Position numbers and translations under genes: made by a program. 64,000 nt of DNA from Eledone cirrhosa (taxonomy: Eukaryota): the NCBI GenBank assembly GCA_964016885.1, contig OZ024764.1:4960001-5024000 (forward strand), in the 5' to 3' direction. Shown here in pieces: positions 8,128 to 40,417 of this stretch (positions are counted from its first letter, which is position 1; the number at the start of each line of letters is the position of its first letter). The notes beneath the pieces were generated by a model. It searched no databases, had not been told where the DNA came from, and saw nothing but the letters and a program-made list of their open reading frames with translations.

Positions 8128-8205
8128 GAACACCACTAATTTCTCCGAAAAATTTATTACTTCTCTCCAATACAGCCTTAATAGCAATGATTACAAGAAA
8201 TTTAT
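8128..8205 (+). CDS. Microexon E2 (class B, 78 nt, phase 2-2): NTTNFSEKFITSLQYSLNSNDYKKF(M)
   Basis: tttaac branch-like motif, acceptor tttctcattacAG, donor GTaagt; length is a multiple of 3. Confidence 0.8.
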
Positions 8206-8565
8206 GTAAGTGTTACCTTAACATACTGTCTAACCATTGTTTAATCTGCTCCTCCCTCTACCTCTCCCTTTATACACACACACACATATATACCCCTATA
8301 TATATATGTATACACACACACACACAAATATATACACATATATACATATATATATACACACATATATATATAATCACATATATATATACATATATACAAG
8401 CGAGACACGGCCTGCTGACCAATCTCGCCTTAAGTGGGACAAAACCGTCCAACCCATGCTAGCATGGAAGATGGACTTTAAATGATGATGATATATACAC
8501 ACTGACACATATATATATACATATATATATACACATATATATACGCATATATTTATATATATATA

Positions 8566-8677
8566 TGAGTTCAAGTCCGCCGAGGTTAACTTTGCCTTTC
8601 ATCTTTACGAGGTCGATAAAATAAAGTACCAGTGGTGTACTGGGGTAATCGCTGGCCTTGTGCCAAAAGTAGAAACT
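8566..8677 (+). mobile_element. 5'-truncated SINE family 1, sense orientation
   Basis: gagttcaagtccgccgaggttaactttgcctttcatc...gataaaataaagtaccag, the reverse complement of the SINE at 294-480; copies near 25468, 28230, 38061 and 40763. Confidence 0.8.
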
Positions 8678-8797
8678 ATATTTATATATATATATATATA
8701 ACCAAAGATTAATATGGTTTGTTGATTACTTAATGAATACAGTTTTGCAATAGATTAGAAGCACTCAACAGTGAAAGTTTTCCTGGACTTTTTAATA

Positions 8798-9051
8798 TTA
8801 ACAAATGAAAAATATTCTCATAATCAAAATATATACTTTATTATATACATTTCAAAGGTATATGACATACCTCTACGGTCTTGATTCTTCAATTCCAGTA
8901 TTGCAGTCACTGCCAATACTGGAATTGAAGAATCAAGACCGTAGCGCTATGTCATAATCATATATTTTGTCTGATGAGGACGTACTGAAAAAACAACAAT
9001 ATATATAATATAGTATATATTTTGATTATGCGAATATTTTTCATTTGTTAA
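8798..9051. repeat. Nested foldback inverted repeat downstream of class B exons
   Basis: Outer arms ttaacaaatgaaaaatattc.cataatcaaaatatatact and its complement; inner arms ctacggtcttgattcttcaattccagtattg / caatactggaattgaagaatcaagaccgtag. Full copies near 25699 and 38286; half copies near 28465 and 40999. Confidence 0.9.
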
Positions 9052-9062
9052 CATTTTGAATA

Positions 9063-9128
<66 letters not shown>

Positions 9129-9194
9129 AGGTAAAATGAATAATGAAAGAGTTGCAAGCCTTTAAAACATATCTTTATAAAGCTCTTACATATG

Positions 9195-9249
<55 letters not shown>

Positions 9250-9253
<4 letters not shown>

Positions 9254-9480
9254 CATTTTATGTCCGCTTTTCCCAGCTTGCAAGGGTTGGGCTCTCACCA
9301 CCACTGGCCATGTTTTTCGTGGTCTTCCTTTTACTGGGATTTTTTAGCACCTCTTTACCCAGCGGTCATCCTCGATGCACATCACTTGTCCATACCATCT
9401 CAGTCTTCTCTCCTGCACACCACAACTCATCCCCAGTTTCTCTCTCAACTCATCTATGGTCTTGTTGTTCACGCATATTG
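9250..9480 (-). mobile_element. Short RTE 3' fragment, antisense
   Basis: DELREKLG..VQERRLRWYGQVM on the minus strand; copies near 26160, 38700 and 41205. Confidence 0.75.
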
Positions 9481-10231
9481 ACACACACACACATACACAT
9501 ATATATATTAATTCTATTGACTGATTAATAGCTCTTGTTAATTTTAAAACCATTCTGTTGAGAGCTTAATTCGTTTTGTGATATTTTGCAATAACACACA
9601 TACTGAATTCATCCGCCAAAACTAAGGGTTGCCCCCCCCCCCCCCCCCTGTGAAGCCCCACGTGGGTTTTGATAACGGTCAGTCCTTGGCTTGGCACTGA
9701 ACTAAAAGCCTGTTGCAAAAGTGACTTCCTTGTTCGATCATCATACAAAAAGCTTAACATTATTTGTCTAAGTAGACAGTACTTGATTTAGGAGTTGCAG
9801 AAACCCAATACTGGATATTACCAACCTTCCAGGGGTCCGGGTATAATTGTCCATCATATTTTATTTGTTTTACTCGAATTACTTGGTCGTGTCTATGGCT
9901 GTGCGGATAATTGTTTAACCATCGTCTCAGTGCGTTTGGCCTTTTAACTTACGTTGTTGCTCTAGTTCACTAGCTTCTATGGAGCGTTTCCCACACATCT
10001 CGGAAGTTGTTTTTCGTTAATTTCCAATAGCAGAAATGCAATTCTCGCTAATTTATATATATATATATATATACACGTATAAGGGATAACAAAATATCGT
10101 TATAGGTAATCCAGTTAGAGGTTGTGAATACTCTGTATTGTGGTTAGTCTTAGTCTACGGCGTTGTTTGACTCAACAAGAGGTTTCCGTAGGTGGCAAGT
10201 ATTTGAGTTCTCTTGAATTCCTATGTAAGTT

Positions 10232-12742
10232 TTGTTGTACACCAGTTACCATAACTCTAGCAACCCACCACATTTATTTCTACTGAATCTCATATTTGTT
10301 AAGTTTAACGTAGAGATTATAGTAATATCAATGTCTTGCTGTAGCTTATAGGGTAGGTTACCATAGGGTAGGTTACTGTAGGGTAGGTTACCATAGGGTA
10401 GATAGTGTCTCGTAGGTTACAATAGGGTAAGTTACGATAGGGTAGGATAGTGTTTGGTAGGTTACCATAGGGTAGGTAACTGTAGGGTAGGTTACGATAG
10501 GGTAGGATACTGTAGGGTAAGTTACTGGAGCGTAGGTTACCATAGGGTAGGTTACCATTGGGTAGGTTACCATTGGGTAGGTTATTATAGGGTAGGTTAC
10601 CACAGGGTAGGTTACCATAGAATAGGTTACTGTAGGGTATTTTACCATAGGGTATGTTACCATAGGGTAGGTTACCTTAAGGTAGGTTACCATAGGTAGG
10701 TTACCTTAGGGTAGGTGACCATAGTGTAGGTTACCATAGATTAGGTTCTGTATGGTAGGTTAGGTTACTATAGGGTAGGTTACCATAGGGTAGGTTACGA
10801 TAGGGTTGGTTGCCATAGGGTAGGTTACCATAGCGTAGGTTACTATTGGGTAGGTTACCATAGGGTAGGTTACTGTAGGTTAGGTTACGTAGGGTTGGTT
10901 ACCATAGGGTAGGTTGCCATAGAGTAGGTTATTATAGGGTAGGTTACCATAAGGTAGATTACCTCAGGGTAGGTTACTGTAGGGTAGGTTACCATGGGGT
11001 AGGTTACCATAGGGTAGGTTACCATAGTGTAGGTTATCTTAAATTAGGTTACCACAGGATAAGTTACCATATGGTAGGTTACTGTAGGTTAGGTTACCAT
11101 AGGTCAGGTTACCATAGGGTAGGTTACTACCATTGGGTAGGTTACTGTAGGGTAACATAGGTTACCATAGTGTAGGTTAATATAACATAGGTAACCATAG
11201 TGTAGGTTACTTTAGATTAGGTTACCATAGGGTAGGTTACCACAGGATAGGTTACCATAGGGTAGGTTACTATAGGTTGTTACCATAGGGTAGGTTACGA
11301 TATGGTTGGTTACCATAGTGTAGGTTACTATAACATTGGTTACCATAGTGTAGGTTACCTTAATTTAGGTTACCATAGGTTAGGTTACCGTATCGTAGGT
11401 TACTGTAGGTTAGGTTACCATAGGGTAGGTTACTATAGGGTAGGCTACCAATGATAGGTTACCATAGGGTAGGTTACCACAGGATATGTTACCATAGGGT
11501 AGGTTACTGTAGGGTAGGTTACTATAACATAGGTAACCATAGTGTAGGTTACTTTAGATTAGGTTACCATAGGGTAGGTTACCACAGGATAAGTTACCAT
11601 ATGGTAGGTTACTGTAGGTTGTTACCATAGGCTAGGTTACTATAACATAGGTTACCAAAGTGTAGGTTTCTATAGGTTGTTACCATAGGGTAGGTTACTG
11701 TAGGGTAGGTTACCATAGGTTAGGTTACCATAGTGTAGGTTACTGTAGGGTAGGTTACTGTAGGGTAGGATACTGTAGGGTAGAATACTGTAGGGTAGGT
11801 TACCATAGGGTAGGATACTGTAGGGTAGGTTACTGTAGGGTAGGTTACTGTAGGGTAGGATACTGTAGGGTAGGTTACTGTAGGGTAGGATACTGTAGGG
11901 TAGGTTACCATAGGGTAGGATACTGTAGGGTAGGTTACCATAGGGTAGGATACTGTAGGGTAGGTTACCATAGGGTAGGATACTGTAGGGTAGGTTACTG
12001 TAGGGTAGGTTACTGTAGGGTAGGATACTGTAGGGTAGGTTACCATAGGGTAGGATACTGTAGGGTAGGTTACCATAGGGTAGGATACTGTAGGGTATGT
12101 TACCATAGGGTAGGATACTGTAGGGTAGGTTACTGTAGGGTAGGTTACTGTAGGGTAGGATACTGTAGGGTAGGTTACCATAGGGTAGGTTACCATAGGG
12201 TAGGATACTGTAGGGTAGGTTACCATAGGGTAGGATACTGTAGGGTAGGTTACTGTAGGGTAGGTTACTGTAGGGTAGGATACTGTAGGGTAGGTTACTG
12301 TAGGGTAGGTTACCATAGAGTAGGATACTGTAGGGTAGGTTACTGTAGGGTAGGATACTGTAGGGTAGGTTACCGTAGGGTAGGTTACCATAGGGTAGGA
12401 TACTGTAGGGTAGGTTACTGTAGGGTAGGATACTGTAGGGTAGGATACTGTAGGGTAGGATACTGTAGGGTAGGTTACCGTAGGGTAGGTTACTGTAGGG
12501 TAGGTTACCATAGGGTAGGATACTGTAGGGTAGGTTACTGTAGGGTAGGTTACCATAGGGTAGGTTATTATAGTATAGGTTACCGTAGGGTAGGTTTCCA
12601 TGAAGTAGGTTACCACAGGGTAGGTTAACATAAATTAGGTTACCATAAGTTAGGTTACCATAGGGTAGGTTTCCACAAGGTATTAACATAAAGTAGGTTA
12701 CCATAGGGTAGGTTACCATAAGTTAGGTTACCAGAGGGTAGG
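10232..12742. repeat. Longest 15-bp G-rich minisatellite array (internal part of the TIR element, both termini lost)
   Basis: (tagggtaggttacca / tagggtaggttactg / tagggtaggatactg)n from about 10348; highly homogeneous at about 11750-12560. Confidence 0.95.
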
Positions 12743-14288
12743 AACATGTCCTCACCCATTACCAACCCCAACAAACTCTGCCATTACTACTACTTCTACT
12801 TTTCTTCTAGCCCTTACCAGCCCCAACAAACCCTGACATTATTACTACTATTGTCCTTCTAGCTATGGGCTGAGGATAAATGGGGCAACCCCAAATTAAT
12901 AAATGAATATGAATCCGTGAGTTACCAAGCACCCATGCAAAGCTTTAATTCAGAGACAGGAAGCATACACACCCCACTGCAAAAATTCACCCTTTCCCAC
13001 GAGTGGTGGCAAATGCCCAAAACTCCGAGTTGGAACCATCAATGTAAGCACAATGACAGGAAGAGCAGGAGAAATTGTAGAGATGCTAGAGCGAAAGAAA
13101 ATTGATGTATGCTGTGTGCAAGAGACTAGATGGAGAGCAGAGTCCGCTGGAGTCCTTGCAGGCAGAAGTCAGTGCTACCAATTTGTCTGGGTAGCAAATG
13201 ACAACAGGATGGGAGGTGTAGCTATCCTATTAGCTGACAAATGGGTAGATAAGGTAATCTCAGTGAACAGGGTGAATGCAAGAATAATGAAACTTGGACT
13301 AGTCCTGAATAAAACAATTGCCACAATAATATCAGCTTACGCACCCCAATTGGGGTTGCCAGCTGACTATAGCGGGGAATTTAGTTTAGAGGTCGGTGTC
13401 CACCAGGGCTCTGTTCTTAGCCCACTCCTGTTCGTTAAAGTATTGCAAGCAATAATGGAGGTGATTATGACCGGATGCCTATGGGAACTCCTATATGTGG
13501 ATCATCTCACACTTATAGCCGAATCTATGGTGGAACTATACTTGCTCAGTATGTAGGAAAGGAGTAGGCTGGCTGCAAAAGGTTTTCTACTCAAAATGAA
13601 AAGCAGACTGTATGATGTGGGTATACGAATATCAATGTTACATAGTAGTGAAACCTGGGCACTGTCTGTGGAAGACTTGCATAGATTAGAAAGAAACGAA
13701 GCCTGCATGCTCCGATGGATGTGTAATAGTAATATACGCGAACGGCAAAGCATAAATGAATTGAGAGAGTGACTGAGCATAAGAGGAATGAAATGCTGTG
13801 TGCAGGAGAGGAGGTTGCATTGGACATGTGATGCGTATGAAGGATGACAGCTGTATAAAAAGGTCTAGAGCACTAGAAGTCGATGGAAGCCGTAGAGTGG
13901 GGAGACCCAAGAAGAGCTGGGATGAGGTGATAAAAGCCGACCTTACCCAGTTGCACCTCTCAAAGGCGATGACACAGGACCGTCACCTCTGGCATCAAGC
14001 AGTAATACAGAAGACCCGACTCCCCAGGGCTACACGCGGAAGCTGAAGCGTATGCTCCCACCCTCTCCGACTGTAAAGTGGACATATAGGCGCCACAGAC
14101 AAAAAGCACCCAGGACTCACTGTAAATGAGGTTGGTGTTAGGAAGGGCATCCAGCTGTAGGAATCAAGCCAGAATCAGTTCCTGTATGAGCAAGACAAGG
14201 TCAGCTGAACAGACACTGCCCACAACAGGACAACCCGTCTAACCCATGCTAGCGTGGAAGAATGGACGTAAAACAGTGATGAAGATGA
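12743..14288 (+). mobile_element. Internally deleted RTE LINE, copy 2 (long-tail version)
   Basis: Same EN-RT junction as copy 1; retains KADLTQLHLSKAMTQDRHLW. Confidence 0.9.
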
Positions 14289-14292
14289 TATA

Positions 14293-16380
14293 TCATATAT
14301 GCCAGTGTACAAGTTGACATTTGGAGCCTAAAAATATCTCTCCAAAACCAGGGGTCGACTTGTCTGCTGAATATAGTATGTTACCTTTACCACTGAGGGG
14401 TAAACAGTGAAACTGCCTGCCTAACACTTGTTGTACACCACTTACCATAACTCTAGCAACCCACCACATTTATTTCTACTGAATCTCATATTTGTTAAGT
14501 TTAACGTAGAGATTATAGTAATATCAATGTCTTGCTGTAGCTTATAGGGTAGGTTACTGTTGGGTAGGTTACTGTAGCGTAGGTTACCATAGGGTAGGTT
14601 ACTGTAGGGTAGGTTACGATAGGGCAGGATACTGTAGGGTAAGTTACTGGAGGGTAGGTTACCATAGGGTAGGTTACCGTAGGGTAGGTTACCATTGGGT
14701 AGGTTATTATAGGGTAGGTTACCACAGGGTAGGTGACCATAGAATAGGTTACTGTAGGGTATTTTACCATAGGGTATGTTACCATAGGGTAGGTTACCTT
14801 AAGGTAGGTTACCATAGGGTAAGTTACCATAGGGTAGGTTACCTTAGGGTAGGTGACCATAGTGTAGGCTACCATAGGTTAGGTTCTGTATGGTAGGTTA
14901 GGTTACTATAGGGTTAGTTACCATAGGGTAGGTTACCATAGCGTAGGTTACTATTGGGTAGGTTACCATAGGGTAGGTTACTGTAGGTTAGGTTACGTAG
15001 GGTAGGTTACCATAGGGTAGGTTGCCATAGAGTAGGTTATTATAGGGTAGGTTACCATAAGGTAGATTACCTTAGGGTATGTTACCATAGGGTAGGTTAC
15101 TGTAGGGTAGGTTACCATAGTGTAGGATACCTTAAATTAGGTTACCACAGGAAAAGTTACCATATGGTAGGTTACTGTAGGTTAGGTTACCATAGGGTAG
15201 GTTATCATAGGTTAGGTTACCAAAGGGTAGGTTACTATAGGTTGTTACCATTGGGTAGGTTACTGTAGGGTAACATAGGTTACCATAGTGTAGGTTAATA
15301 TAACATAGGTCACCATAGTGTAGGTTACCTTAGATTAGGTTACCACAGGATAGGTTACCATATGGTAGGTTACTGTAGGTTAGGTCACCATAGGGTAGGT
15401 TACTATAGGGTAGGCTACTATAGGTTGTTACCATAAGGTAGGTTACTATAGGTTGTTACCATAGGGTAGGTTACTATAGGTTGTTACCATAGAGTAGGTT
15501 ACAATATGGTTGGTTACCATAGTGTAGGTTACTATAACATTGGTTACCATAGTGTAGGTTACCTTAATTTAGGTTACCATAGGTTAGGTTACCGTATCGT
15601 AGGTTACTGTAGGTTAGGTTACAATAGGGTAGGTTACTATAGGGTAGGCTACCAATGATAGGTTATGATGGGTTAGGTTCCATAGGGTAGGTTACCACAG
15701 TATATGTTACCATATGGTAGGTTAGGTTACCATAGGGTAGGTCACCATAGTGTAGGTTACTTTAGATTAGGTTACCATAGGGTAGGTTACCACAGGATAA
15801 GTTATCATATGGTAGGTTACTATAACATAGGTTACCAAAGTGTAGGTTTCTATAGGTTGTTACCATAGGGTAGGTTACTGTAGGGTAGGTTACTGTAAGG
15901 TAGGTTACCATAGGGTAGGATACTGTAGGGTAGGTTACCAGAGGGTAGGTTATTATAGTATAGGTTACCGTAGGGTAGGTTTCCATGAAGTAGGTGACCA
16001 TAGGGTAGGTTACTATAAGTTAGGTTACCATAGGGTAGGTTTCCATGAAGTAGGTTACCACAGGGTAGGTTAACATAAATTAGGTTACCTTAGGGTAGGT
16101 TACCATAAGTTAGGTTACCATACGGTAGGTTACCATAGGTTTGTTAAGGTTAGGCTAGGCTGGTCTACACGGTGAGTTAAAACTCACTTGTGACTGTAGT
16201 GTTTTAGAAGAAGTGTCTTAATCTTTCGTGCACCACTAAATTTTTTAACTATTTCCCCTGAAACTGCCTTATTTTGGGGAGGTTATCTTATCAATCGAAT
16301 AGCGTCCTAAATCTAAATTACACCTCAGAATTTTAGGGGCCACGCTATGTACCGGATAGACTTGTACACCGGCATATATA
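14293..16380. mobile_element. TIR element with 15-bp minisatellite, copy 2
   Basis: Left tcatatatgccagtgtacaagttga; right tagacttgtacaccggcatatat. Confidence 0.75.
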
Positions 16381-16479
16381 TATATGCAAAGAGAGCGAGA
16401 GAAACAGCGGGAGTGAGAGAGATACATTAAAACAATAACAGAGGTCTGACTGGAGAATTTACTTTAGAATTTTAAGAGA

Positions 16480-17800
16480 AAAGAGGAAGGTTTCAGACTT
16501 CTGGAATTCCTTCACGAAAATGTCCTATTTATCTGTAACACAAACTTCAAAAAATGAGACAACCACTTAATAACATATAGATCATGTGAGCCCACCAGCT
16601 AGATAGATTTCCTTGTTACCATAAGACAGAGTGACTGTTATAAACACAAAGTCCCTCCCTAGTGAAGAATGCACCTCCCAACATACCTTAGGAGACAAAC
16701 TGGAAGAAAAGATTATAGATCAAAATCAAAAGGTCTTAAAGTCAATTTGGTAAAGACTAAAGTTCTAGTAAGTAGAAAGGAAAACAGGGCCCAGATCTCT
16801 TCAGGTAAACTGTCCTGCTCAGTGTGCAGAAAAGGAGTAGGTAGAAATTCCATCCTATGTCCCATATAGAAATGATGGGTACACAAAAGATGTCGTGGGA
16901 TCTCAGGGAGGCTAACAAAGAACGTAGCTTCTACATGTGGCCAATGAACAGGGGCAGGAAATATCAAGAGCTCTCGGGTTACAATCTCCTTCAAATGCCC
17001 AGAAGTCTCTGCAGAGGTGGTAGATAGTTTCTGTTACCTAGGTGACTAAATCAGCAGTGGAGTAGGGTGGTCCCAAAACTCAGTAACAAGAGTGAGATTA
17101 GATTGGAGAAAGTGCAGGGATCTACTACTACTGCTAACAACAAAAAGTTTTTCCCTCAAAATGAAGGGCAGACTGTATGATGCAGGTATACAAACAACAA
17201 TGTTGCACAGCAGCGAGACCTGGGCACTGTGTGTAGAAGATCTGTAAAGATTGGAAAGAAATGAAGCCTCCATGCTTCAATGGATGTGCCATAGTAATAT
17301 ATGCAAATGGCAAAACATAAATGTACTGCGAGAGAAATTAGGCATAAGAGGGGTTACATGCAGTGTGCAGGAGAGGGATTGTTTTGGTATAGACATGTGA
17401 TGTGTATGAAGGGTGACAGCTGTATAAAAAGGTGCCGAACAAACAAAGTTGACAGAAACCGTGGAGTGGGCAGGTCTAGGAAGACATGGGATGAGGTAAG
17501 GAAAGCTGACTTTGCACAATTACACCTCGCTAAGGCAATGACACAGGAGGGTGACCTCTGGCGCTATGCACAATTATAGAGGACCTGCCCTCATAAATCC
17601 ACGAGCTGAGGCATATATCTAGTATGTAACACCTTCCCCACCATCATCCCTCCCAAACACCTTCACCCCTATAACTACATCCACAATCCACCAGACATTT
17701 TCCCTACCAACACCCCACACAAGTTCCCAAACCTCACCATAAAGTGGTCCTGCTGCAGCCATGACAAATGTGCCCAGTCCACACTGTACAGTGGTCTTGT
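16480..17800 (+). mobile_element. Degenerate RTE LINE fragment with 3' end
   Basis: KGLKVNLVKTKVL...WYRHVMCM...GVGRSRKTWDEV; multiple stops. Copies at about 44850-46050, 51180-52500 and 58500-59830; partial at 28683-29180. Confidence 0.85.
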
Positions 17801-18147
17801 AGGTGTCCTGCCAAAAATCAATATTGGGCCTTAAAATCTTGAGTCCCTTTTGTTCTGTGTATGAACATAAATAATTGTTTCTACTTTTGGCACAAGGCCA
17901 GCAATTATCCAGTGCATTACTGGTACTTTATTTTATCGACCCCGTAAGGATGAAAGGCAAAGTTAACCTTGGCGGGATTTGAACTCAGATCATACAGGGA
18001 GGTAACTATGCTTCAAAGCATGGTGTCCGACTCTCTACCGATACTGCCAATCCACCGCCTGAACATAAATAAATAATGTAATATATATATATATGTATGT
18101 GTGTGTGTATCTATTTATATATTTAACTATATTTTTTGTAATCACAG

Positions 18148-18189
18148 GACTGTTCCACTGCAGAGTTCCGCTAGAGGAAACAGTGACGA
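18148..18189 (+). CDS. Microexon E3 (class A2, 42 nt): TVPLQSSARGNSD(E)
   Basis: Acceptor ttttttgtaatcacAG, donor GTaagt; open in phase 2. Confidence 0.8.
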
Positions 18190-18490
18190 GTAAGTTTTAG
18201 TTTTACACACTATCTAACCATTATTCTATCTGTTCCTTCCCGTCTCTCTCTCTCTTTATATATATATATTTATATATACTAAGGTGTATTATTGGTTGTG
18301 TAAAACGGTCCAATAAATTTTTGTTAGCAATATTAAGTTCTCCACGCTTTTGTATATCTCCAATTCCATTCAAGGGAACAGCTAGATGATGTAAAAAAAT
18401 CCGAAGGCAAGGTAAAATTTCCAATCATTTTAATCATGTCGTGATTAAAATGATTGGAAATCTTACCTTCCCTTTGGATTTTCATTTTGA

Positions 18491-18525
<35 letters not shown>

Positions 18526-25028: not shown

Positions 25029-25106
25029 GAACACCACTAATTTCTCCGAAAAATTTATTACTTATCTTTTATGCAGCCTTCCCTCCAATGATTACAAGAA
25101 ATTTAT
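25029..25106 (+). CDS. Microexon E4 (class B, 78 nt): NTTNFSEKFITYLLCSLPSNDYKKF(I)
   Basis: Acceptor tttctcattacAG, donor GTaagt; 10 clustered substitutions relative to E2 inside near-identical flanks. Confidence 0.8.
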
Positions 25107-25963
25107 GTAAGTGTTACCTTAACATACTGTCTAACCATTGTTTAATCTGCTCCTCCCTCTACCTCTCCCTTTATACACACACACACATATATACCCCTAT
25201 ATATATATGTATACACACACACACACAAATATATACACATATATACATATATATATACACACATATATATATAATCACATATATATATACATATATACAA
25301 GCGAGACACGGCCTGCTGACCAATCTCGCCTTAAGTGGGACAAAACCGTCCAACCCATGCTAGCATGGAAGATGGACTTTAAATGATGATGATATATACA
25401 CACTGACACATATATATATACATATATATATACACATATATATACGCATATATTTATATATATATATGAGTTCAAGTCCGCCGAGGTTAACTTTGCCTTT
25501 CATCTTTACGAGGTCGATAAAATAAAGTACCAGTGGTGTACTGGGGTAATCGCTGGCCTTGTGCCAAAAGTAGAAACTATATTTATATATATATATATAT
25601 AACCAAAGATTAATATGGTTTGTTGATTACTTAATGAATACAGTTTTGCAATAGATTAGAAGCACTCAACAGTGAAAGTTTTCCTGGACTTTTTAATATT
25701 AACAAATGAAAAATATTCTCATAATCAAAATATATACTTTATTATATACATTTCAAAGGTATATGACATACCTCTACGGTCTTGATTCTTCAATTCCAGT
25801 ATTGCAGTCACTGCCAATACTGGAATTGAAGAATCAAGACCGTAGCGCTATGTCATAATCATATATTTTGTCTGATGAGGACATACTGAAAAAACAACAA
25901 TATATATAATATAGTATATATTTTGATTATGCGAATATTTTTCATTTGTTAACATTTTGAATA

Positions 25964-27852: not shown

Positions 27853-27888
27853 CTCATATGATTCTTTAACCGATTACAAGAAAGTTAT
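27853..27888 (+). CDS. Microexon E5 (class B, 36 nt): SYDSLTDYKKV(M)
   Basis: Acceptor tttttctcattacAG, donor GTaagt; the other two frames contain stops (TGA, TAA). Confidence 0.8.
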
Positions 27889-29529
27889 GTAAGTGTTACC
27901 TTAACAAACTGTCTAACCATTGTTTAATCTGCTCCTCCCTCTACCTCTCCCTTTATACACACACACACATATATACCCCTATATATATATATGTATACAC
28001 ACACACACACAAATATATACACATATATACATATATATATACACACATATATATACATATATACAAGCGAGACACGGCCTGCTGACCAATCTCGTCTTAA
28101 GTGGGACAAAACCGTCCAACCCATGCTAGCATGGAAGATGGACTTTAAATGATGATGATATATATACACTGACACATATATATACATATATACAAATATA
28201 TATACGCATATATCTATATATATATATATGAGTTCAAGTCCGCCGAGGTTAACTTTGCCTTTCATCTTTACGAGGTCGATAAAATAAAGTACCAGTGGCG
28301 CACTGGGGTAATCGCTGGCCTTCTGCCAAAAGTAGAAACTATAATTATATATATATAACCAAAGATTAATATGGTTCGTTGATTACTCAACGAATACAGT
28401 TGTACAATAGATTAGAAGCACTCAACAGTGAAATTTTCCTGGAGTTTTTAATATTATTCAAAATATTAACAAATGAAAAATATTCTCATAATCAAAATAT
28501 ATACTTTATTATATATATTTCAAAGGTATATGACATACCTCTACGGTCTTGATTATTCAATTCCACTATTGGCAGTGACTATATATTTATAGGCAAAATG
28601 AATAATGAAAGAGTTGCAAGCCGTTAAAACATATCTTTATAAAGCTCTTACATATGTTATATATATATATATCATCATCATCAGCAGCGAGACCTGGGCA
28701 CTGTGTGTAGAAGATCTGTAAAGATTGGAAAGAAATGAGCCTCCATGCTTCAATGGATGTGCCATAGTAATATATGCAAATGGCAAAACATAAATGTACT
28801 GTGAGAGGATTTAGGCATAAGAGGGATTAGATGCAGTGTGCAGGAGTGGGATTGTTTTGGTATAGACATGTGATGTGTATGAAGGGTGACAGCTGTATAA
28901 AAAGGTGCCAAACGCACAAAGTTGACAGAGGCCGTGGAGTGGGCAGGTCTAGGAAGACTTGGGATGAGGTAAGGAAAGCTGATTTTGCACAATTACACCT
29001 AGCTAAGGCAATGACACAGGATGGTGACCTCTGGCGCTATGCACAATTATAGAGGACTACATCCACAATCCACCAGACATTTTCCCTACCAACACCCCAC
29101 ACAAGTTCCCAAACCTCACCATAAAGTGGTCCCGCTGCAGCCATGACAAATATGTCCAGTCCACACTGTACAGTGGTATTGTAGGTGTCCTGCCAAAAAT
29201 CAATATTGGGCCTTAAAACCTTGAGTCCCTTTTGTTCTGTGTATGAACATAAATAATTGTTTCTACTTTTGGCACAAGGCCAGCAATTATCCAGTGCATT
29301 ACTGGTACTTTAATTTATCGACCCCGTAAGGATGAAAGGCAAAGTTAACCTCGGCGGGATTTGAACTCAGATCATACAGGGAGGTAACTATGCTTCAAAG
29401 CATGGCGTCCGACCCTCTACCGATACTGCCAATCCACCGCCTGAACATAAATAAATAATGTAATATATATATATATGTATGTGTGTGTGTATCTATTTAT
29501 ATATTTAACTATATTTTTTGTAATCACAG

Positions 29530-29571
29530 GTCTGATTCACTGCCGAGGTCCACTATAGGAAACAGTGACGA
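29530..29571 (+). CDS. Microexon E6 (class A2 variant, 42 nt): SDSLPRSTIGNSD(E)
   Basis: Acceptor ttttttgtaatcacAG, donor GTaagt; 7 substitutions relative to E3. Confidence 0.8.
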
Positions 29572-29857
29572 GTAAGTTTTAGTTTTACACACTATCTAAC
29601 CATTATTCTATCTGTTCCTTCCCGTCTCTCTCTCTCTTTATATATACTAAGGTGTATTATTGGTTGTGTAAAACGGTCCAATAAATTTTTGTTAGCAATA
29701 TTAAGTTCTCCACGCTTTTGTATATCTCCAATTCCATTCAAGGGAACAGCTAGATGATGTAACAAAATCCGAAGGCAAGGTAAAATTTCCAATCATTTTA
29801 ATCATGTCGTGATTAAAATGATTGGAAATCTTACCTTCCCTTCGGATTTTCATTTTG

Positions 29858-29888
<31 letters not shown>

Positions 29889-30524
29889 TGACTCTGTCTC
29901 TTATAAACCACGTTGGCTATTATGACACTCTCTCCAACATAGAGAGCTATGTTGGCTAATATGACTCTCTCTGTATGTTGACTATAATGACTCTCTCTCT
30001 ATGTTGGCTATTATGACTCTCTCTCTCTCTCTATGTTGGCTATAATGACTCTCTCTCTCTCTATGTTGGCTATTATGTCTCTCTCTGTTCAAGCTTTATG
30101 AAGTTAGATGAACATCTTCAAAGTCCTCCCATATTCGCCTTGTCTAATATGCGTTCTTGTACCTGATTATTTCCCCCAAATCTCCTGGGATGTTATAAAC
30201 CATGATGGCTACCTATCTCACAATTTCTCTCCTGCCCACCCCCTCACACCACCATAGTCTATTCGACCAATCAAACCTCAGCAACATGTCCCCCACCCAT
30301 TAAAAACCCCAACAAACTCTGCCATTACTACTACTTCTACTTTTCTTCTAGCCCTTACCAGCCCTTTATTTTATCGACCCCGTAAGGATGAAAGGCAAAG
30401 TTAACCTCGGCGGGATTTGAACTCAGATCGGAAAGGGACGTAACTAAATAAATAATGTAATATATATATATGTATTTGTGTTTGTATCTATTTATATATT
30501 TAACTATATTTTTTGTAATCACAG

Positions 30525-30566
30525 GACTGATACAGAGGAGAGTACCGCTCTAGAAAAGAATGACGA
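30525..30566 (+). CDS. Microexon E7 (class A1, 42 nt): TDTEESTALEKND(E)
   Basis: Canonical AG/GTaagt; the other two frames contain stops (TGA, TAG). Confidence 0.8.
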
Positions 30567-30630
30567 GTAAGTTTTAGTTTTACATACTATCTAACCATTA
30601 TTCTATCTGTTCCTTCCCGTCTCTCTCTCT

Positions 30631-30694
<64 letters not shown>

Positions 30695-31382
30695 AGGTGT
30701 ATTATTGGTTGTGTAAAACGGTCCAATAAATTTTTGTTAGCTTTTGTATATCTCCAATTCCATTCAAGGGAACAGCTAGATGATGTAAAACGGAGTATTT
30801 GTATCAAAATGAAAATCCAAAGGCAAGGTAAAATTTCCAATCATTTTAATCTCGCCGTGATTAAAATGATTGCAAATCTTACCTTGCCTTTGGATTTTCA
30901 TTTTGATATATATATATATATGTATATATATGACTCTGTCTCTTATAAACCACGTTGGCTATTATGACACTCTCTCCAACATAGAGAGCTATGTTGGCTA
31001 ATATGACTCTCTCTCTCTCTCTCTCCCTCTCTATGTTGGCTATTATGACTCTCTCTCTGTCCCACTCTATGTTGGCTAATATGACGCTCTCTCTCTCTCT
31101 ATGTTGGCTATTATGACTCTCTCTCTCTCTATGTTGGCTATTATGTCTCTCTCTCTCTATCTATGTGGGCTATTATGTCTCTCTCTGTTCAAGGTTTATG
31201 AAGTTAGTTGAACATCTTCAAAGTCCTCCCATATTCGCCTTGTCTAATATGCGTTCTTGTACCTGATTATTTCCCCCAAATCTCCTGGGATGTTATAAGC
31301 CATGATGGCTACCTATCTCACAATTTCTCTCCTGCCCACCCCCTCATACCACCATAGTCTATTCGACCAATCAAACCTCAGA

Positions 31383-32755
31383 AACATGTCCCCACCCATT
31401 ACCAACCCCAACAAACTCTGCCATTACTACTACTTCTACTTTTCTTCTAGCCCTTACCAGCCCCAACAAACCCTGACATTATTACTACTATTGTCCTTCT
31501 AGCCATGGGCTGAGGATAAATGGGGCTACCCCAAATTAATAAATGAATATGAATCCGCGAGTTACCAAGCACCCATGCAAAGCTTTAATTCAGAGACAGG
31601 AAGCATACACACCCCACTGCAAAAATTCACCCTTTCCCACGAGTGGTGGCAAATGCCCCAAACTCCGAGTTGGAACCATCAATGTAAGCACAATGAAAGG
31701 AAGAGCAGGAGAAATTGTAGAGATGCTAGAGCGAAAGAAAATTGATGTATGCTGTGTGCAAGAGACTAGATGGAGAGCAGAGTCCGCTGGAGTCCTTGCA
31801 GGCAGAAGTCAGTGCTACCAATTTGTCTGGGTAGCAAATGACAACAGGATGGGAGGTGTAGCTATCCTATTAGCTGACAAATGGGTAGATAAGGTAATCT
31901 CAGTGAACAGGGTGAATGCAAGAATAATGAAACTTGGACTAGTCCTGAATAAAACAATTGCCACAATAATATCAGCTTACGCACCCCAATTGGGGTTGCC
32001 AGCTGACTATAGCGGGGAATTTAGTTTAGAGGTCGGTGTCCACCAGGGCTCTGTTCTTAGCCCACTCCTGTTCGTTAAAGTATTGCAAGCAATAATGGAG
32101 GTGATTATGACCGGATGCCCATGGGAACTCCTATATGCGGATCATCTCACACTTATAGCCGAATCTATGGTGGAACTATACTTGCTCAGTATGTAGGAAA
32201 GGAGTAGGCTGGCTGCAAAAGGTTTTCCCCTCAAAATGAAAAGCAGACTGTATGATGTGGGTATACGAATAGCAATGTTACATAGTAGTGAAACCTGGGC
32301 GCCGTCTGTGGAAGACTTGCATAGATTAGAAAGAAACGAAGCCTGCATGCTCCGATGGATGTGTAATAGTAATATACGCAAACGGCAAAGCATAAATGAA
32401 TTGAGAGAGTGACTGAGCATAAGAGGAATGAAATGCTGTGTGCAGGAGAGGATGTTGCATTGGACATGTGATGCGTATGAAGGATGACAGCTGTATAAAA
32501 AGGTGTAGAGCAGTAGAAGTCGATGGAAGCCGTGGAGTGGGGAGACCCAAGAAGAGCTGGGATGAGGTGATAAAAGCCGGACTCACTGTAAATGAGGTTG
32601 GTGTTAGGAAGGGCATCCAGCTGTAGGAATCAAGCCAGAATCAGTTCTTGTATGAGCAAGACAAGGTCAGCTGAACAGACACTGCCCACAACAGGACAAC
32701 CCGTCTAACCCATGCTTGCGTGGAAGAATGGACGTAAAACAGTGATGAAGATGAT
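31383..32755 (+). mobile_element. Internally deleted RTE LINE, copy 4
   Basis: 217-aa ORF 31543-32196. Confidence 0.9.
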
Positions 32756-32758
32756 ATA

Positions 32759-34498
32759 TCATATATGCCAGTGTACTATTTGACATTTGGAGCCTAAAAA
32801 TATCTCTCCAAAACCAGGGGTCGACTTGTCTGCTGAATATAGTATGTTACCTTTACCACTGAGGGGTAAACAGTGAAACTGCCTGCCTAACACTTGTTGT
32901 ACACCACTTACCATAACTCTAGCAACCCACCACATTTATTTCTACTGAATCTCATATTTGTTAAGTTTAACGTAGAGATTATAGTAATATCAATGTCTTG
33001 CTGTAGCTTATAGGGTAGGTTACCATACGGTAGGGTACTGTAGGGTAGGTTACCATAGGGCAGGTTACTGTAGGGTAGGATACTGTCTGGTAGGTTACTG
33101 TAGGGTAGGTTACCTTGGGTAGGTTACTGTAGTGTAGGTTACTGTAGGGTAGGTTACTGTATGGTAGATTACTCTAGGCTAGGTTACCATAGGGTAGGTT
33201 ACTGTAGTGTAGGTTACCATAGGGTAGGTTACCACAGAGTAGGTTACCTTATGGTAGGTTACCTTATGGTAAGTTACTATAGGGTAGGTTACCATAGGGT
33301 AGGTTACCTTATGGTAAGTTACTATAGGGTAGGTTACCATAGTGTAGGTTACCTTATGGTAAGTTACTATAGGGTAGGTTACCATAGGGTAGGTTACCTT
33401 AGTGTAGGTAAGAATAGGGTAGGTTACCATAGGTTAGGTTACTGTAGGGTAGGTTACCATAAGGTAGGTTACTGTAGGGTAGGTTACCATAGGGTAGGTT
33501 ACTGTAGGTAGGTTACCATAGGGTAGTTTACCGTAGGTTAGGTTACTGTAGGGTAGTTTACCGTAGGTTAGGTTACTGTAGGGTAGGTTAACATAGGGTA
33601 TGTTAGCATAGGGTTGGTTACCATAGGTTAAGTTCATATAGGTTGTTACCATATGGTAGGTTACTGTAGGGTAGGTTGCTATAGGGTAGGTTATCGTAGA
33701 GTAGGTTACTATAAGGTAGGTTACCATAAGGTAGGTTACCGTAGGGTAGGTTACTATAGGGTAGGGTATCATAGGATAGGTTACCATAAGGCAGGTTACC
33801 ATAGAGTAGGTTACCTTAGGGTAGTTTACTATAAGATAGGTTACCATAGTGTAGCTTACCATAGGGTAGGTTGTTACCATAGGCAAGGTTACTATAGGGT
33901 GGGTTACCATAGGGTAGTTTATGATATGGTTGGTTACCATAGTGTAGGTTACTATAACATAGGTACCATAGTGTAGGATACCTTAGATTAGGTTACTGTA
34001 GGTTAGGTTACCATAGGTTAGGTTAGCAATGGGTAGGTTACTATAGGTTGTTACCATAAGGTAGGTTACTGTATGGTGGGTTACCATAGGGTAGGGTACC
34101 ATAAAGTAGGTTATTATAGTGTAGGTTACCTTAGGATAGGTAACCATAGGGTAGGTTACTATGGGGTAAGTTACCATAGGGTAGGTTCCCATAGGGTAGG
34201 TTAACATAAGCTAGGTTACCTCAGGGTAGGTTACCATACCATAAAGTAGGTTACCATAGGTTTGTTAAGGTTAGGCTAGGCTGGTCTACTCGGTGAGTTA
34301 AAACTCACTTGTGACTGTAGTGTTTTAGAAGTGTCTCAATCTTTCATGCACCACTAAATTTTTTAACTATTTCCCCTGAAACTGCCTTATTTTTGGGGGT
34401 CATCTTATCAATCGAATAGCGTCCTAAATCTAAATTATACTTCAGAATTTTAGGGGCCGACTTATGTACCGGATAGACTTGTACACCGGCATATATGG
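32759..34498. mobile_element. TIR element with 15-bp minisatellite, copy 4
   Basis: Same termini as copy 1. Confidence 0.75.
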
Positions 34499-37400
34499 TA
34501 TATATATATATATGCATGGAGGCACATGGCTTAGTGGTTAGAGCATTGGTCATGCAATCGAAAGGTTGTGAGTTCAATTCTCAGACCGGGTGATGTGTTG
34601 GTTCCTTGAGCAAGACACTTTATTTCACATTGCTCCAGTTTACTCAGCTGTAGAAATGAGATGATAGGGACTGGGGTCCCTATCATTCCACTGCAAAGTG
34701 GTCGTGGAGGTGCCACGGCAAAAAAAAGCACCCAGCACTCACTGTAAATGAGGTTGGTGACAGGAAGGGAATACAGCTGTAGAAATCAAGCCAGAATCAG
34801 TTCCCGTCCCGCCCTTGCAAGCAGGGAAAAGTGGACGTAAAATGAAATGATGAAAGAGAGATAGAGAGAAAGAGAGGGAGTGAGAGAGATACATTAAAAC
34901 AATAACAGAAGGTCTGACTGGAGAATTTACTTTAGAATTCCTTCACGGAAATGTCTTATTTATCTGTAACACAAACTTCAAAAAACAAGACAACCACTTA
35001 ATAATCGATAGATCAAGTGAGCCCTCCAGCTAGATAGATTTCCTTGTTACCAGAAGACAGAGTGACTGTTATAAACACAAAGTCCTTCCCTAGTGAAGAA
35101 TGCACCTCCCAACATACCTTAGAATACAACCTGGAAGAAAAGAGTATAGATCAAAATCAAAAGGTCTTAAAGTCAATTTGGTAAAGACTAAAGTTCTAGT
35201 AAGTAGAAAGGAAAACTGGGCCCAGATCTCTTCAGGTAAACTGTCCTGCTCAGTGGGCAGAAAAGGAGTAGGTAGAAATTCCATCCTATGTCCCATATAG
35301 AAATGATGGGTACACAAAAGATGTTGTGGGATCTCAGGAAGGCTAACAAAGAACGTAGCTTCTACATGTGGCCAGTGAACAGGGGCAGGAAATATCAAGA
35401 GCTCTCGAGTTACAATCTCCTTCAAATGCCCAGAAGTCTCTGTAGAGGTGGTAGATAGTTTCTGTTACTTAGGTGACTAAATCAGCAGTGGAGGAGGGTG
35501 GTCCCAAAACTCAGTAACAAGAGTGAGATTAGATTGGAGAAAGTGCAGGGATCTACTACTACTGCTAACTACAAAACATTTTTCCATCAAAATGAAGGGC
35601 AGACTGTATGATGCAGGTATACAAACAACAATGTTGCACAGCAGCGAGACCTGGGCACTGTGTGTAGAAGATCTGTAAAGATTGGAAAGAAATGAAGCCT
35701 CCATGCTTCAATGGATGTGCCATAGTAATATATGCAAATGGCAAAACATAGGTTACCATTGGGTAGGTTACTGTAGGGTAGGGTACCATAGGGTAGGTTA
35801 CTGTATGGTAGGTTACATTTCGTTAGGTTACTGTAGGGTAGGTTACCATAGGGTGGGTTACCATAGGGTAGGTTACTGTAGGGTAGGATACCATAGGGTA
35901 GTTATGTAGGGTAGGTTACCATAGTGTAGGTTACTGTAGGGTAGGTTACCATAGAGTAGGATACTGTAGGGTAGGTTACCATAGGTTAGGTCACTGTAGG
36001 GTAGGTTACCATAGGGTAGGTTATTATAGGGTAGGTTACCATAGGTTAGGTTACTATAGGGTTGGTTGCCATAGGGTATGTTACCATAGGGTAGGTTACT
36101 ATAAGGTAGGTTACCATACCATAGGTTAGGTTACCATATGTTTGTTAAGGTTAGGCTAGGCTGGTTTACTCGGTGAGTTAAAACTCACTTGCGACTGTAG
36201 TGTTTTAGAAGAAGTGTCTTAATCTTTAGTGCGCCACTAAATTTTTTAACTATTTCCCCTGAAACTGCCTTATTTTTTGGGTGTCGTCTTATGAATCGAA
36301 TAGTGTCGTATAGGACTATCTGGCATGTTTTCTATGGCTGGATGCCCTTCCTAACACCAACCACGTTTACAGTGTGGGGACTGGGAGGTTTTCACCATGT
36401 TAACTACACGGCCAATTTACAGCGTGGACTGTGTGTTTTATTGTCATGACACCTACACAACCTCATTTATTTAGGACTGGATGTTGTGTGACCAACATAA
36501 TTTTACAGAGATGGGGGTGGGAGTAGTGGGCTGGGGGCGTATATTTGGTTAAGAGGTGCCTACTGACTGTAGGTTTCGCTTTGTACTTAGGCAAGGGTGG
36601 TCTTCTGTATTACTGCGTAGCGCCAAAGATCTCGGTTCAGTGACATTGTCTTGGAGAGGTGTAAGTGTGTGAGATCGGAATTTATCAATTCGTCCCAGGG
36701 TTTTCTGGGTCTGCCTACTCCGTGGCTACCATTTATTTTGATCGCCCTGCACTTTTTTATACAGCTGTCGTCTTTCTTGCGCATCACGTGACCATACCAA
36801 CGTAGTCTTCTCTCGAGTAAACAACATCTGATCCCTCTTATTCCTAATTTCTCACTTAGTTCATTTATGCTTTGCCGTTCACGTATATTACTATTACACA
36901 TCCAGCAGAGCATGCAAACTTCATTCCTCTACAGTCTGCGTATATCCTCTGCACACAATGCCCAAGTCTCACTGCCATGTAACATTGTTGTTCGTATGCA
37001 GGCATCATACAGCCTGCCTTTCATTTTTAGAGAGAACCCTTTAGCGGCCAATCGTACAATGAAAAGAGCGTCTGTGATACTTTTACCTGACACAAACCCA
37101 AACTGCATTTCATCTAGATCAATTCTCTCTCTGATTAGTTGCGCTATTACTTTTTCTGTGACCCTCATGAACTGGTCAATTAATTTAATGCCTCTATAGT
37201 TTCCCCTATCTAGGGCATCTCCTTTACCCTTGTAGCAGTTAATGATGATGATATATATATAAAAGAAATAGGATTTCGCTTCAAGCATATCTTTATACAA
37301 TATGTATAAATATTTTGTATCTCCAAAGAAATACGGTTTTAGGAAGCCTTAGCTCTGCAAACCCTGGGGGGCTAACGTCCTCTGGTGATGTCCAGCAGAA

Positions 37401-37659
37401 GCAAAGGGGACAACCGTCTATGCATTTCAGGCTTAACTGGCCATCGTCAGGACAGTCCCTCCCACTGCTTGCGACTGCTGGCCAGTTAAGCGTGAAATGC
37501 ATAGATGGTTGTCCCCCTTGCTTCTGCTGGACATCACCAGAGGCCTTGAAACCCTAAGTCCCTTTTGTTCTGTGTATGAACAGAAATAAATAATGTAATA
37601 TATATATATGTATGTGTGTGTATCTATTTATATATTTAACTATATTTTTCTCATTACAG

Positions 37660-37689
37660 GAACACCACTAATTTCTCCAAAACCGTTAC
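37660..37689 (+). CDS. Microexon E8 (class B, 30 nt): NTTNFSKTV(T)
   Basis: Acceptor tttttctcattacAG, donor GTaagt; same 5' end as E2/E4 but 48 nt shorter, in frame. Confidence 0.8.
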
Positions 37690-38550
37690 GTAAGTGTTAC
37701 CTTAACATACTGTCTAACCATTGTTTAATCTGCTCCTCCCTCTACCTCTCCCTTTATACACACACACACATATATACCCCTATATATATATGTATACACA
37801 CACACACACAAATATATACACATATATACATATATATATACACACATATATATACATATATACAAGCGAGACACGGCCTGCTGACCAATCTCGCCTTAAG
37901 TGGGACAAAACCGTCCAACCCATGCTAGCATGGAAGATGGACTTTAAATGATGATGATATATACACACTGACACATATATATATACATATATATATACGC
38001 ATATATTTATACATATATATATATACACATATATATACGCATATATTTATATATATATATGAGTTCAAGTCCGCCGAGGTTAACTTTGCCTTTCATCTTT
38101 ACGAGGTCGATAAAATAAAGTACCAGTGGTGTACTGGGGTAATCGCTGGCCTTGTGCCAAAAGTAGAAACTATAATTATATATATATAACCAAAGATTAA
38201 TATAGTTCGTTGATTACTCAACGAATACAGTTGTACAATAGATTAGAAGAACTCAACAGTGAAAGTTTTCCTGGACTTTTTAATATTAACAAATGAAAAA
38301 TATTCTCATAATCAAAATATATACTTTATTATATACATTTCAAAGGTATATGACATACCTCTACGGTCTTGATTCTTCAATTCCAGTATTGCAGTCACTG
38401 CCAATACTGGAATTGAAGAATCAAGACCGTAGCGCTATGTCATAATCATATATTTTGTCTGATGAGGACGTACTGAAAAAACAACAATATATATAATAAA
38501 GTATATATTTTGATTATGCGAATATTTTTCATTTGTTAACATTTTGAATA

Positions 38551-38582
<32 letters not shown>

Positions 38583-38652
38583 GTATAGGTAAAATTAATA
38601 ATGAAAGAGTTGCAAGCCTTTAAAACATATCTTTATAAAGCTCTTACATATG

Positions 38653-38700
<48 letters not shown>

Positions 38701-40387
38701 TCATTATCATTTTATGTCCGCTTTTCCCTGCTTGCAAGGGTTGGGCTCTCACCACCACTGGCCATGTTTTTCGTGGTCTTCCTTTTACTGGGATTTTTTA
38801 GCACCTCTTTACCCAGCAGTCATCCTCGATGCGCATCACTTGTCCATACCATCTCAGTCTTCTCTCCTGCACACCACAACTCATCCCCAGTTTCTCTCTC
38901 AACTCATCTATGGTCTTGTCGTTCACGCACATTGACACACACACACACACACACACATATATATTAATTCTATTGACTGATTAATAGCTCTTGTTAATTT
39001 TAAAACCATTCTGTTGAGAGCTTAATTCGTTCTGTGATATTTTGCAATTTTGCAATAACACACATACTGAATTCATCCGCCAAAACTAAGGGTTGCTCCC
39101 CCTCCCCCCTTGTCAAGCCCCACGTGGGTTTTGATAACGGTCAGTCCTTGGCTTGGCACTGAACTAAAAGCCTGTTGAGAAAGTGACTTCCTTGTTCGAT
39201 CATCATACCAAAAGCTTAACATTATTTGTCTAAGTAGACAGTACTTGATTTAGGAGTTGCAGAAACCCAATACTGGATATTACCAACCTTCCAGGGGTCC
39301 GGGTATAATTTTCCATCATATTTTATTTGTTTTACTCGAATTACTTGGTCGTGTCTATGGCTGTGCGGATAATTGTTTAACCATCGTCTCAGTGTGTTTG
39401 GCCTTTTAACTTATGTTGTTGCTCTAGTTCACTAGCTTCTATGGAGCGCCTGCCACACATCTCGGAAGTTGTTTTTCGTTAATTTCCAATAGCAGAAATG
39501 CAATTCTCGCTAATTTATATATATATATATATATATATATACACGTATAAGGGATAACAAAATATCGTTATAGGTAATCCAGGTAGAAGTTGTGAATACT
39601 CTGTATTGTGGTTAGTCTTAGTCTACGGCGTTGTTTGACTCAACAAGAGGTTTCCGTAGGTGGCAAGTATTTGAGTTCTCTTGAATTTCTATGTAAGTTT
39701 ATCTTGGAGTAATAATATTGAAAGCGTGAAGAATAACATGGTCAACAGTACAAAAGAAGGTTTTTATTTACAGTAGTAACAATTGTTTCACTGATTAAGT
39801 TGTCTAAAAATCGCTGAAAACTTAAAGCTGTGCCACTCAATCTACTATATATATTGGAAGTGGTCGGACGTTGTATATTTAAGTAAATAAGTAGGTGTAG
39901 TCGGATAAACGTCGAAACGGCTTGGTAGAATGCAGCGAAAATTTACACAGTTATGCAGAATTGTAGCAGTTAATGATGATATATATGTAAAAGAAATAGG
40001 ATTTCGCTTCAAGCATATCTTTATACAATATGTATAAATATTTTGTATCTCCAAAGAAATACGGTTTTAGGAAGCCTTAGCTCTGCAAACCCTGGGGGGC
40101 TAACGTCCTCTGGTGATGTCCAGCAGAAGCAAGGGGGACAACCGTCTATGCATTTCAGGCTTAACTGACCATCGTCTGGACAGTCCCTCCCACTGCTTGC
40201 GACTGCTGGCCAGTTAAGCGTGAAATGCATAGACGGTTGTCCCCCTTGCTTCTGCTGGACATCACCAGAGGCCTTGAAACCCTAAGTCCCTTTTGCTCTG
40301 TGTATGAACAGAAATAAATAATGTAATATATATATATGTATGTGTGTGTATCTATTTATATATTTAACTATTTTTTTCTCATTACAG

Positions 40388-40417
40388 TCCCACCACCACT
40401 ACAACCATGACATTTAT
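40388..40417 (+). CDS. Microexon E9 (class B, 30 nt): PTTTTTMTF(I)
   Basis: Acceptor tttttttctcattacAG, donor GTaagt; flanks near-identical to those of E5 while the exon body is largely different. Confidence 0.8.

Follow-up and report, generated by a model that had tools for sequence, protein, structure and literature searches.

We analysed a 64,000-nucleotide (nt) stretch of the Eledone cirrhosa genome (the window: contig OZ024764.1, positions 4,960,001–5,024,000 of a 3.0 Gb genome; the prefix C25 marks coordinates on this contig). A preliminary description of this DNA had singled out five short segments with near-identical flanks and variable, in-frame bodies. The five segments belong to an array of 107 tandem micro-exon cassettes that occupies C25:4871418–5399532 (~530 kb), and the whole window (1–64000, + strand) is made up of the introns and micro-exons of a single gene at about C25:4.864–5.630 Mb. 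The array is real and constrained as coding sequence. On balance, we favour a sequence-based reading in which these frame-symmetric cassettes are likely to be optionally spliced, and would thus place many different cytoplasmic tails on a type II membrane protein that is probably enzyme-dead.

A tandem array of in-frame micro-exons

Cassettes were located by a search anchored on their flanks, not on the reading frame, across ~800 kb of contiguous DNA; such a search would overlook any cassette from which both flanks have disappeared. The array comprises 54 class A cassettes, 49 class B cassettes and four B-type copies with an acceptor supplied by a neighbouring repeat (53 B in all). B exons measure 27, 30, 33, 36, 57 or 78 nt, and among the 107 cassettes 56 different exon sequences occur, which encode 50 peptides (31 B, 19 A). 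All 107 have lengths divisible by three, are of phase 2/2 and are free of stops in frame 1, with stops in the other two frames in 88 and 40 of them. The preliminary description had claimed that every length change keeps the frame and had named non-triplet lengths and in-frame stops as the findings that would tell against this; each was found in 0 of the 107 cassettes. The same holds for 16 further cassettes in three paralogous genes, giving 123 of 123 at four loci. By shuffling of family representatives, a single frame open in all 19 exon families would arise by chance with a probability of ~3e-7, and 3 of 11 distinct, non-microsatellite indels in the flanks are multiples of three. Stops at exon junctions are impossible from any exon end in the array. 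Translation of the array exons, now or until very recently, is very probable. Translation had been argued for earlier, and it is now strongly backed by frame, phase, selection and the fit to a phase-2 transmembrane exon, as a prediction from sequence.

Introns between cassettes have a median length of 6 kb and are ~98% alike. Splice sites are near-consensus in 96 of the 107 cassettes and unusual in 11; the unusual ones include the four borrowed acceptors, three weak donors and one site that lacks GT. Serine and threonine make up 24% of the array residues. Higher-order duplications, in which a ~21.8 kb unit (A A A B30 B30 B36) is present three times alongside units of 20–23 kb (C25:5114700–5174100 and 5180000–5261000), show recent block amplification.

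The window contains 13 of these segments on the forward strand, eight of class A (42 nt each) and five of class B, all of phase 2/2 and sharing one open frame. Those of class A are E1 (709–750, TDTEEGTAPENND, donor GTACGT), E3 (18148–18189, TVPLQSSARGNSD), E6 (29530–29571, SDSLPRSTIGNSD), E7 (30525–30566, TDTEESTALEKND), E10 (46542–46583, ADTKESTALEKNE), E11 (52850–52891), E12 (53905–53946) and E13 (60181–60222). Class B segments are bounded by a common acceptor (ttctcattacag) and donor (gtaagtgttacc) and comprise E2 (8128–8205, 78 nt, with an in-frame internal CAG at +48), E4 (25029–25106, 78 nt, NTTNFSEKFITYLLCSLPSNDYKKF), E5 (27853–27888, 36 nt, SYDSLTDYKKV), E8 (37660–37689, 30 nt, NTTNFSKTV) and E9 (40388–40417, 30 nt, PTTTTTMTF). 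The five B lengths, their near-identical flanks and their peptides agree with the preliminary description. The NTTNFS peptide (window 8128–8145 and 37660–37677) carries two N-glycosylation sequons; like the Ser/Thr content of the array, these would be odd in a cytoplasmic tail, and we take this as coincidence.

Diversification of the exons

Class A diversity is 0.25 within the exon versus 0.01–0.03 in the flanks, and 0.35, 0.29 and 0.15 at the three codon positions. Along a spanning tree of 50 of the 54 A copies (the four most divergent omitted), synonymous sites changed at 0.8 times and non-synonymous sites at 3.6 times the flank rate (P 7e-11). The within-exon ratio of non-synonymous to synonymous rates (dN/dS) is 2.0 for class A (P 0.03–0.05) and 0.25–1.2 for six B groups. 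These rates suggest that the class A exons are under diversifying selection.

Class B behaves differently from its flanks at both kinds of site. In four B groups synonymous sites changed at 10–41 times and non-synonymous sites at 6–33 times the flank rates, so that block replacement or flank homogenisation probably acts as well. E2 and E4 differ at 10 of 78 exon positions versus 6 of 1,800 flanking positions, confirming that change is confined to the exon; it is blockwise, affecting 5 of 6 adjacent bases, and farther out homology continues upstream for 3.9 kb (95%) and downstream for 2 kb (96%). Similarly, E5 and E9 had been described as almost wholly different exons in closely related cassettes, and their bodies are indeed barely alignable while their flanks differ at 4 of 596 positions. 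Across the array, cassettes that differ at 1–4 of 593 flank sites can hold unrelated, still in-frame peptides. Thus, frame-keeping change has been very recent, and selection on single substitutions is insufficient alone. We infer that B exons changed by frame-filtered block replacement, or by exchange that homogenised the flanks around old exon bodies.

The 78-nt exons suggest one source of new bodies. Their 5' part matches the 30-nt exon type at 28–29 of 30 positions and their 3' part the 33-nt type at 24–26 of 33 (in E2, the NTTNFSEKF and N..M.DYKKF types, over 30 and 33 nt), and they therefore look like fusions. The linker between the two parts may be a decayed acceptor, an in-frame internal CAG being present in three of five; a 30+15+33 fusion fits equally. 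The earlier proposal of a constant repeat with a variable insert thus stood in part, in that change is confined to the exons, but the constant repeat is duplicated intron and not a coding unit, and the idea of inserts placed into one frame gives way to a probable fusion of two shorter exon types. Nor did the suggested search for donors yield any: of the 56 distinct exons two were queried, E2 by its variable block and E9 by its body, and each sequence occurs once in the 3.0 Gb genome with at most one mismatch allowed. Reverse-transcribed A-to-I editing was considered as a source of variants and rejected, there being no A/G excess.

An M13-like host gene and its paralogs

The transmembrane exon (ALLMAVIIFITIITSILISIS, C25:5413283–5413395) of the host, a divergent M13/neprilysin-like gene, lies 14 kb past the last cassette. 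It is 113 nt long, hydrophobic, and of phase 2 in and phase 1 out, phases that link the array to the first of 18 M13-like exons (C25:5416317–5629521). Together these 19 exons form 605 codons with no internal stop or frameshift and encode a predicted M13-like ectodomain of 570 residues. Pfam M13 matches (Peptidase_M13_N and Peptidase_M13) were obtained on 4 of 13 single exons scanned, in the correct order, with E values of 0.0099 (one of eight exons) and 4e-4, 0.013 and 3.7e-5 (three of five). Two motifs of the family, as given in the available part of the source (PMC2259306), are present: AVNAFYY for VNAFY and QENIADLG for ENIAD. The zinc motif reads HKIFH in place of HExxH, lacking the catalytic Glu.

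The single N-proximal hydrophobic segment points to a type II protein. Given the type II layout described for the family in the portion consulted of PMC4242634, the micro-exons, upstream of the transmembrane exon, would encode a cytoplasmic N-terminal tail. We also considered whether the Thr/Ser-rich peptides could form an extracellular, mucin-like region. This was rejected because we found no other hydrophobic exon and the M13 ectodomain would have to be on the outer side of the membrane. The protein is probably enzyme-dead, as judged from its sequence. The segment which we take to hold the catalytic His of neprilysin reads YSP in all four copies of the gene described below.

Searches for relatives returned little. 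Single-exon queries gave no protein relatives among 43 and 74 candidates; 1.84 billion sequences yielded one repeat-like junk match, and the Atlas none at 0.9. All of these searches are weak because the queries are short and fast-evolving. The host locus was not among the matches listed in genome searches with two M13 profiles.

Three paralogs lie on the same contig at 7.2, 7.5 and 25 Mb and are 98, 87 and 80% identical to the host gene over the first 450 residues. All four copies are open from the transmembrane exon to the stop, with length differences in multiples of three only. Their micro-exon numbers differ: four at 7.2 Mb (plus two in a partial duplicate), one at 7.5 Mb and nine at 25 Mb. 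The zinc motifs of these paralogs are HEIFH, HQIFH and HEIFH, respectively. The host gene differs from its nearest paralog by 13 non-synonymous and 4 synonymous changes. The transmembrane exon has hydrophobic counterparts in all three paralogs and is hypervariable between the gene copies (113, 98 and 89 nt; dN 0.46–0.59 versus 0.05–0.09 for the ectodomain). The transmembrane/stalk exons (C25:5413283, 7498831 and 25176278) diverge 5–9 times more than ectodomain exons, and their length changes are in frame.

In the two older paralogs (C25:7.49 and 25.04 Mb) an ATG exon with a phase-2 end precedes the micro-exons. This exon (C25:25041720 and 7491826) sits in a dispersed repeat with 71 genome matches, and it therefore resembles an exonised transposon. 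The position of the ATG has moved between the 7.5- and 25-Mb paralogs, and phase 2 was kept. A putative non-coding first exon of the host gene (C25:4864580–4864935) contains a 57/69-nt tandem repeat that includes GTAAGT sites resembling donors; the end of this exon is also found in the 25-Mb paralog. A 48-nt satellite, whose unit resembles an acceptor plus the first bases of the next exon, fills an intron of more than 100 kb in the host gene (C25:5458400 to beyond 5564000) and covers ~1.6 kb in the 7.5-Mb paralog. The partial 5' duplicate with its two micro-exons lies at C25:7296000–7308000 (− strand). A fifth copy of the terminal exon is found at C25:24978197–24978434 (− strand), for which middle-exon searches found no partner.

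Predicted splicing of the array, competing readings and known systems

The peptides of the two classes differ at their ends. Lys or Arg occurs within the last four residues of 27 of 31 B peptides versus 7 of 19 A peptides, and in this the B ends resemble the basic single juxtamembrane micro-exon of the one-exon paralog. Basic ends would suit the B exons as alternatives for the position beside the membrane. One A exon followed by one downstream B exon could give 392 distinct peptide pairs.

The introns hold elements that could guide such a choice. In all 53 B cassettes a repeat fragment ~210–290 nt past the donor is complementary over 42 nt to an inverted, dock-like copy at C25:5413111–5413152, which is positioned 131–172 nt before the transmembrane exon. 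In the window the candidate selector cores, all on the + strand, follow E2 (8451–8476), E4 (25352–25377), E5 (28118–28143), E8 (37917–37942) and E9 (40647–40672). Predicted B duplexes have energies of −53 to −60 kcal/mol; A cassettes reach a median of −18, and shuffled sequences −22 ± 3. At equal stringency the background is 1 of 3,104 sequence windows, and that one may be the nearest paralog's own copy. Within the array, 55 copies have the selector orientation and 6 the dock orientation. Because the selectors are identical in 49 of 53 cassettes, covariation cannot be scored. In the two older paralogs no dock is present within 260 nt of the acceptor, one of them having a looser match 1.9 kb away. 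We found no shared upstream dock for the 54 A exons, only an AT-rich 12-mer that we take as chance. The docking/selector-like layout is a lead, not a result.

Two other pairing elements accompany the B exons. A near-perfect inverted repeat that would form a ~170-nt hairpin (window 7846–8012, + strand; −135 kcal/mol, z −16.9 for the copy before E2) lies ~120 nt before the acceptor in all 53 B cassettes, and hairpin arms of different cassettes could cross-pair. Past the B donor, a dispersed-repeat arm (window 8563–8685, + strand) is ~90% complementary over 125 nt to an arm before A exons (e.g. window 287–410), the B-downstream and A-upstream arms being mutually complementary.

We propose that the array grew by unequal crossing-over from one ancestral juxtamembrane exon. 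Diversifying selection would have driven the A exons, and B exons would have been altered in blocks, through in-frame indels and a two-exon fusion, within flanks that are young or homogenised by exchange between cassettes. In the predicted transcript a B exon with a basic end would directly precede the transmembrane exon, selection among the B exons may be guided by competing RNA pairing between a downstream arm and the dock-like copy, and some upstream A or B exons would also be included. A bolder version, which we put forward tentatively, would make the gene an isoform generator on the scale of Dscam, newly formed in one copy of the gene: one juxtamembrane exon became 107 positively selected micro-exons, a repeat inserted ahead of the transmembrane exon docks one of 53 B exons, and cells bear different cytoplasmic tails on an enzyme-dead, neprilysin-like surface protein.

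Several observations weigh against optional splicing on a coding, selected, M13-like gene. The paralog-type ATG exon is cut after ~34 nt in the host gene and in its 98%-identical neighbour. Aside from one candidate start (ATG GA/gtaaac, with a phase-2 donor, at C25:4866248), the only substitute starts found are ATGs made at AT/G exon junctions, 43 of the 107 exons ending in AT and 84 starting with G. Basic B ends may simply be inherited. When all 54 A copies are included, synonymous sites run at 2.7 times and non-synonymous sites at 5.2 times the flank rate, and when exons are pooled, dN/dS within them does not exceed 1 (20.5 synonymous and 90.5 non-synonymous changes, P 0.28). All Pfam M13 matches fall below the curated cut-offs. 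The altered zinc motif, the loss of a conserved-looking Cys (KYSF here versus KYSC in the three paralogs) and an ectodomain dN/dS of 0.8–1.4 also fit decay. As to pairing, five further dock-orientation copies lie inside the array, and both the dock and the selectors derive from pieces of a dispersed repeat that is common. Among 18 other acceptors in the gene, one forms a stronger duplex (−69 kcal/mol, 50 nt at 82%) at a place where an in-frame join is impossible, and chance is therefore real.

A constitutive chain, in which every exon is spliced into one disordered cytoplasmic tail of ~1,420 residues, is the most serious of the competing readings, although we think it unlikely. The 107 joined exons are open over 1,421 codons without a stop, their splice sites are for the most part near-consensus, and the complementary 125-nt arms could favour joins from B to A. 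Steric hindrance would not prevent joint inclusion, since the introns are long (at least 102 of 106 exceed 950 nt). However, strong diversification of 10–14-residue pieces is hard to select within a 1,400-residue chain, and B exons across the array keep a basic end like that of the single exon in the one-exon paralog. The eight copies with odd splice sites also tell against a chain, though it would skip such copies in frame anyway.

It is less likely still that the exons were once coding and selected, and that this copy is now silent or decaying, with the array a by-product of unequal crossing-over. The truncated start exon, the E-to-K change in the zinc motif, the C-to-F change, a dN/dS near 1 and the size of the gene (765 kb, including the satellite intron) are all consistent with decay. 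However, neither a stop nor a frameshift is found in the 19 downstream exons or the 107 micro-exons, and different in-frame exons within near-identical flanks (1–4 of 593) indicate very recent change that kept the frame. Moreover, an ATG in strong context with a phase-2 donor lies upstream in the host gene and in both neighbouring copies.

Targeted rewriting between AG and GT, by templated conversion or exon-directed hypermutation, appears improbable. It would account for the fast synonymous sites of the B groups, for blockwise changes such as that between E2 and E4, and for the rapid divergence of the transmembrane exon between paralogs. On the other side stand the E2 block and E9 body, the two of 56 distinct exons searched and both single-copy at up to one mismatch, the synonymous sites of 50 A copies, which run at the flank rate, and the spectrum of exon substitutions, which are spread over all six classes with A/G and C/T changes not in excess of the flanks. 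Non-coding repeat cassettes or an assembly artefact would suit a region made almost entirely of repeats and recent duplications, but are close to refuted by the shared open frame and triplet lengths of all 123 cassettes at four loci, by codon-position asymmetry, by the phase match to the M13-like gene and by exon variants in contigs from three runs (one sample, possibly the assembly's own source). These contigs are repeat-swamped; they leave E4 uncovered and are uninformative on it.

Among known systems, the gene resembles the M13 family (neprilysin, ECE-1) in its type II layout and in the VNAFY and ENIAD motifs. In the parts of the sources consulted, non-peptidase homologues of the family such as Drosophila Gone early are described as a lineage-specific expansion that lost catalytic residues (PMC2259306, PMC4815360, PMC4242634), and the host-gene family is likewise expanded with loss of catalytic residues. 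According to the consulted part of PMC4815360, ECE-1a–d differ solely in the N-terminal tail and in localisation, the tail variants setting the latter. The scale differs: four tails are described for ECE-1 and one of 129 residues for Gone early, whereas 107 duplicated micro-exons could build the tail here. A further difference is that the catalytic Glu position varies among close paralogs (K, E, Q, E).

The array shares with the Schistosoma MEG genes and SmVAL6, as far as the consulted parts describe them, many short exons of the same phase, long introns rich in transposons and rapid amino-acid change (10.1101/2023.06.21.545858, PMC4350168, PMC2270263). Its exons of 27–78 nt, uniform 2/2 phase and median intron of 6 kb are of the MEG type. 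SmVAL6 is reported to have 38 exons, and exon skipping in its tail, which is joined to a conserved domain, yielded 35 isoforms among 67 clones (PMC2270263, PMC4350168). However, MEGs are described there as secreted, host-facing and mostly micro-exon, whereas the array here precedes a transmembrane exon and an M13-like ectodomain. The variable part here is predicted to be cytoplasmic, the exons arose recently by copying of one or two cassettes, and splicing is predicted. The host gene is not a MEG, and it is unlikely to encode an active peptidase.

In Dscam, exon clusters encode immunoglobulin (Ig) domains, one exon is used per cluster and the clusters are separate. A possible likeness to such clusters lies in tandemly duplicated alternative exons and in many intronic arms complementary to a single site by a constitutive exon. 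A docking/selector model for mutually exclusive exons, and a model of partial stem-loop duplication that predicts this layout of many arms and one site, are set out in the consulted part of PMC6071210. Here, in contrast, exons of 27–78 nt would encode unstructured peptide and not Ig domains, two exon classes are interleaved instead of forming separate clusters, and the pairing elements are fragments of a dispersed repeat, in a layout known from sequence alone. The literature searched (titles and abstract openings, partial in coverage and without supplements) held no description of the host gene or the array.

Large arrays of alternative exons are known in few genes, Dscam among them. MEG genes and SmVAL6 are others, going by the consulted parts of their descriptions (10.1101/2023.06.21.545858, PMC4350168, PMC2270263). 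In most known arrays the variation affects surfaces exposed to other cells or to hosts; here, if the reading is true, the cytoplasmic side of a pseudo-peptidase varies, which would point to an unrecognised intracellular conflict or signalling diversity. Because the paralogs form a series of 1, 4, 9 and 107 exons with introns ~98% alike, the birth of the array is traceable, as is the possible origin of a repeat-derived docking/selector system. Such an array would escape standard annotation.

The region is nearly all repeats and recent duplications. A Pfam scan of open reading frames in the flanks (150 of 394 scanned) returned transposon domains and weak matches only. Arrays of a 15-nt satellite with TAGG motifs accompany the cassettes at window positions 3287–4708 and 10348–12742 and at seven further sites.

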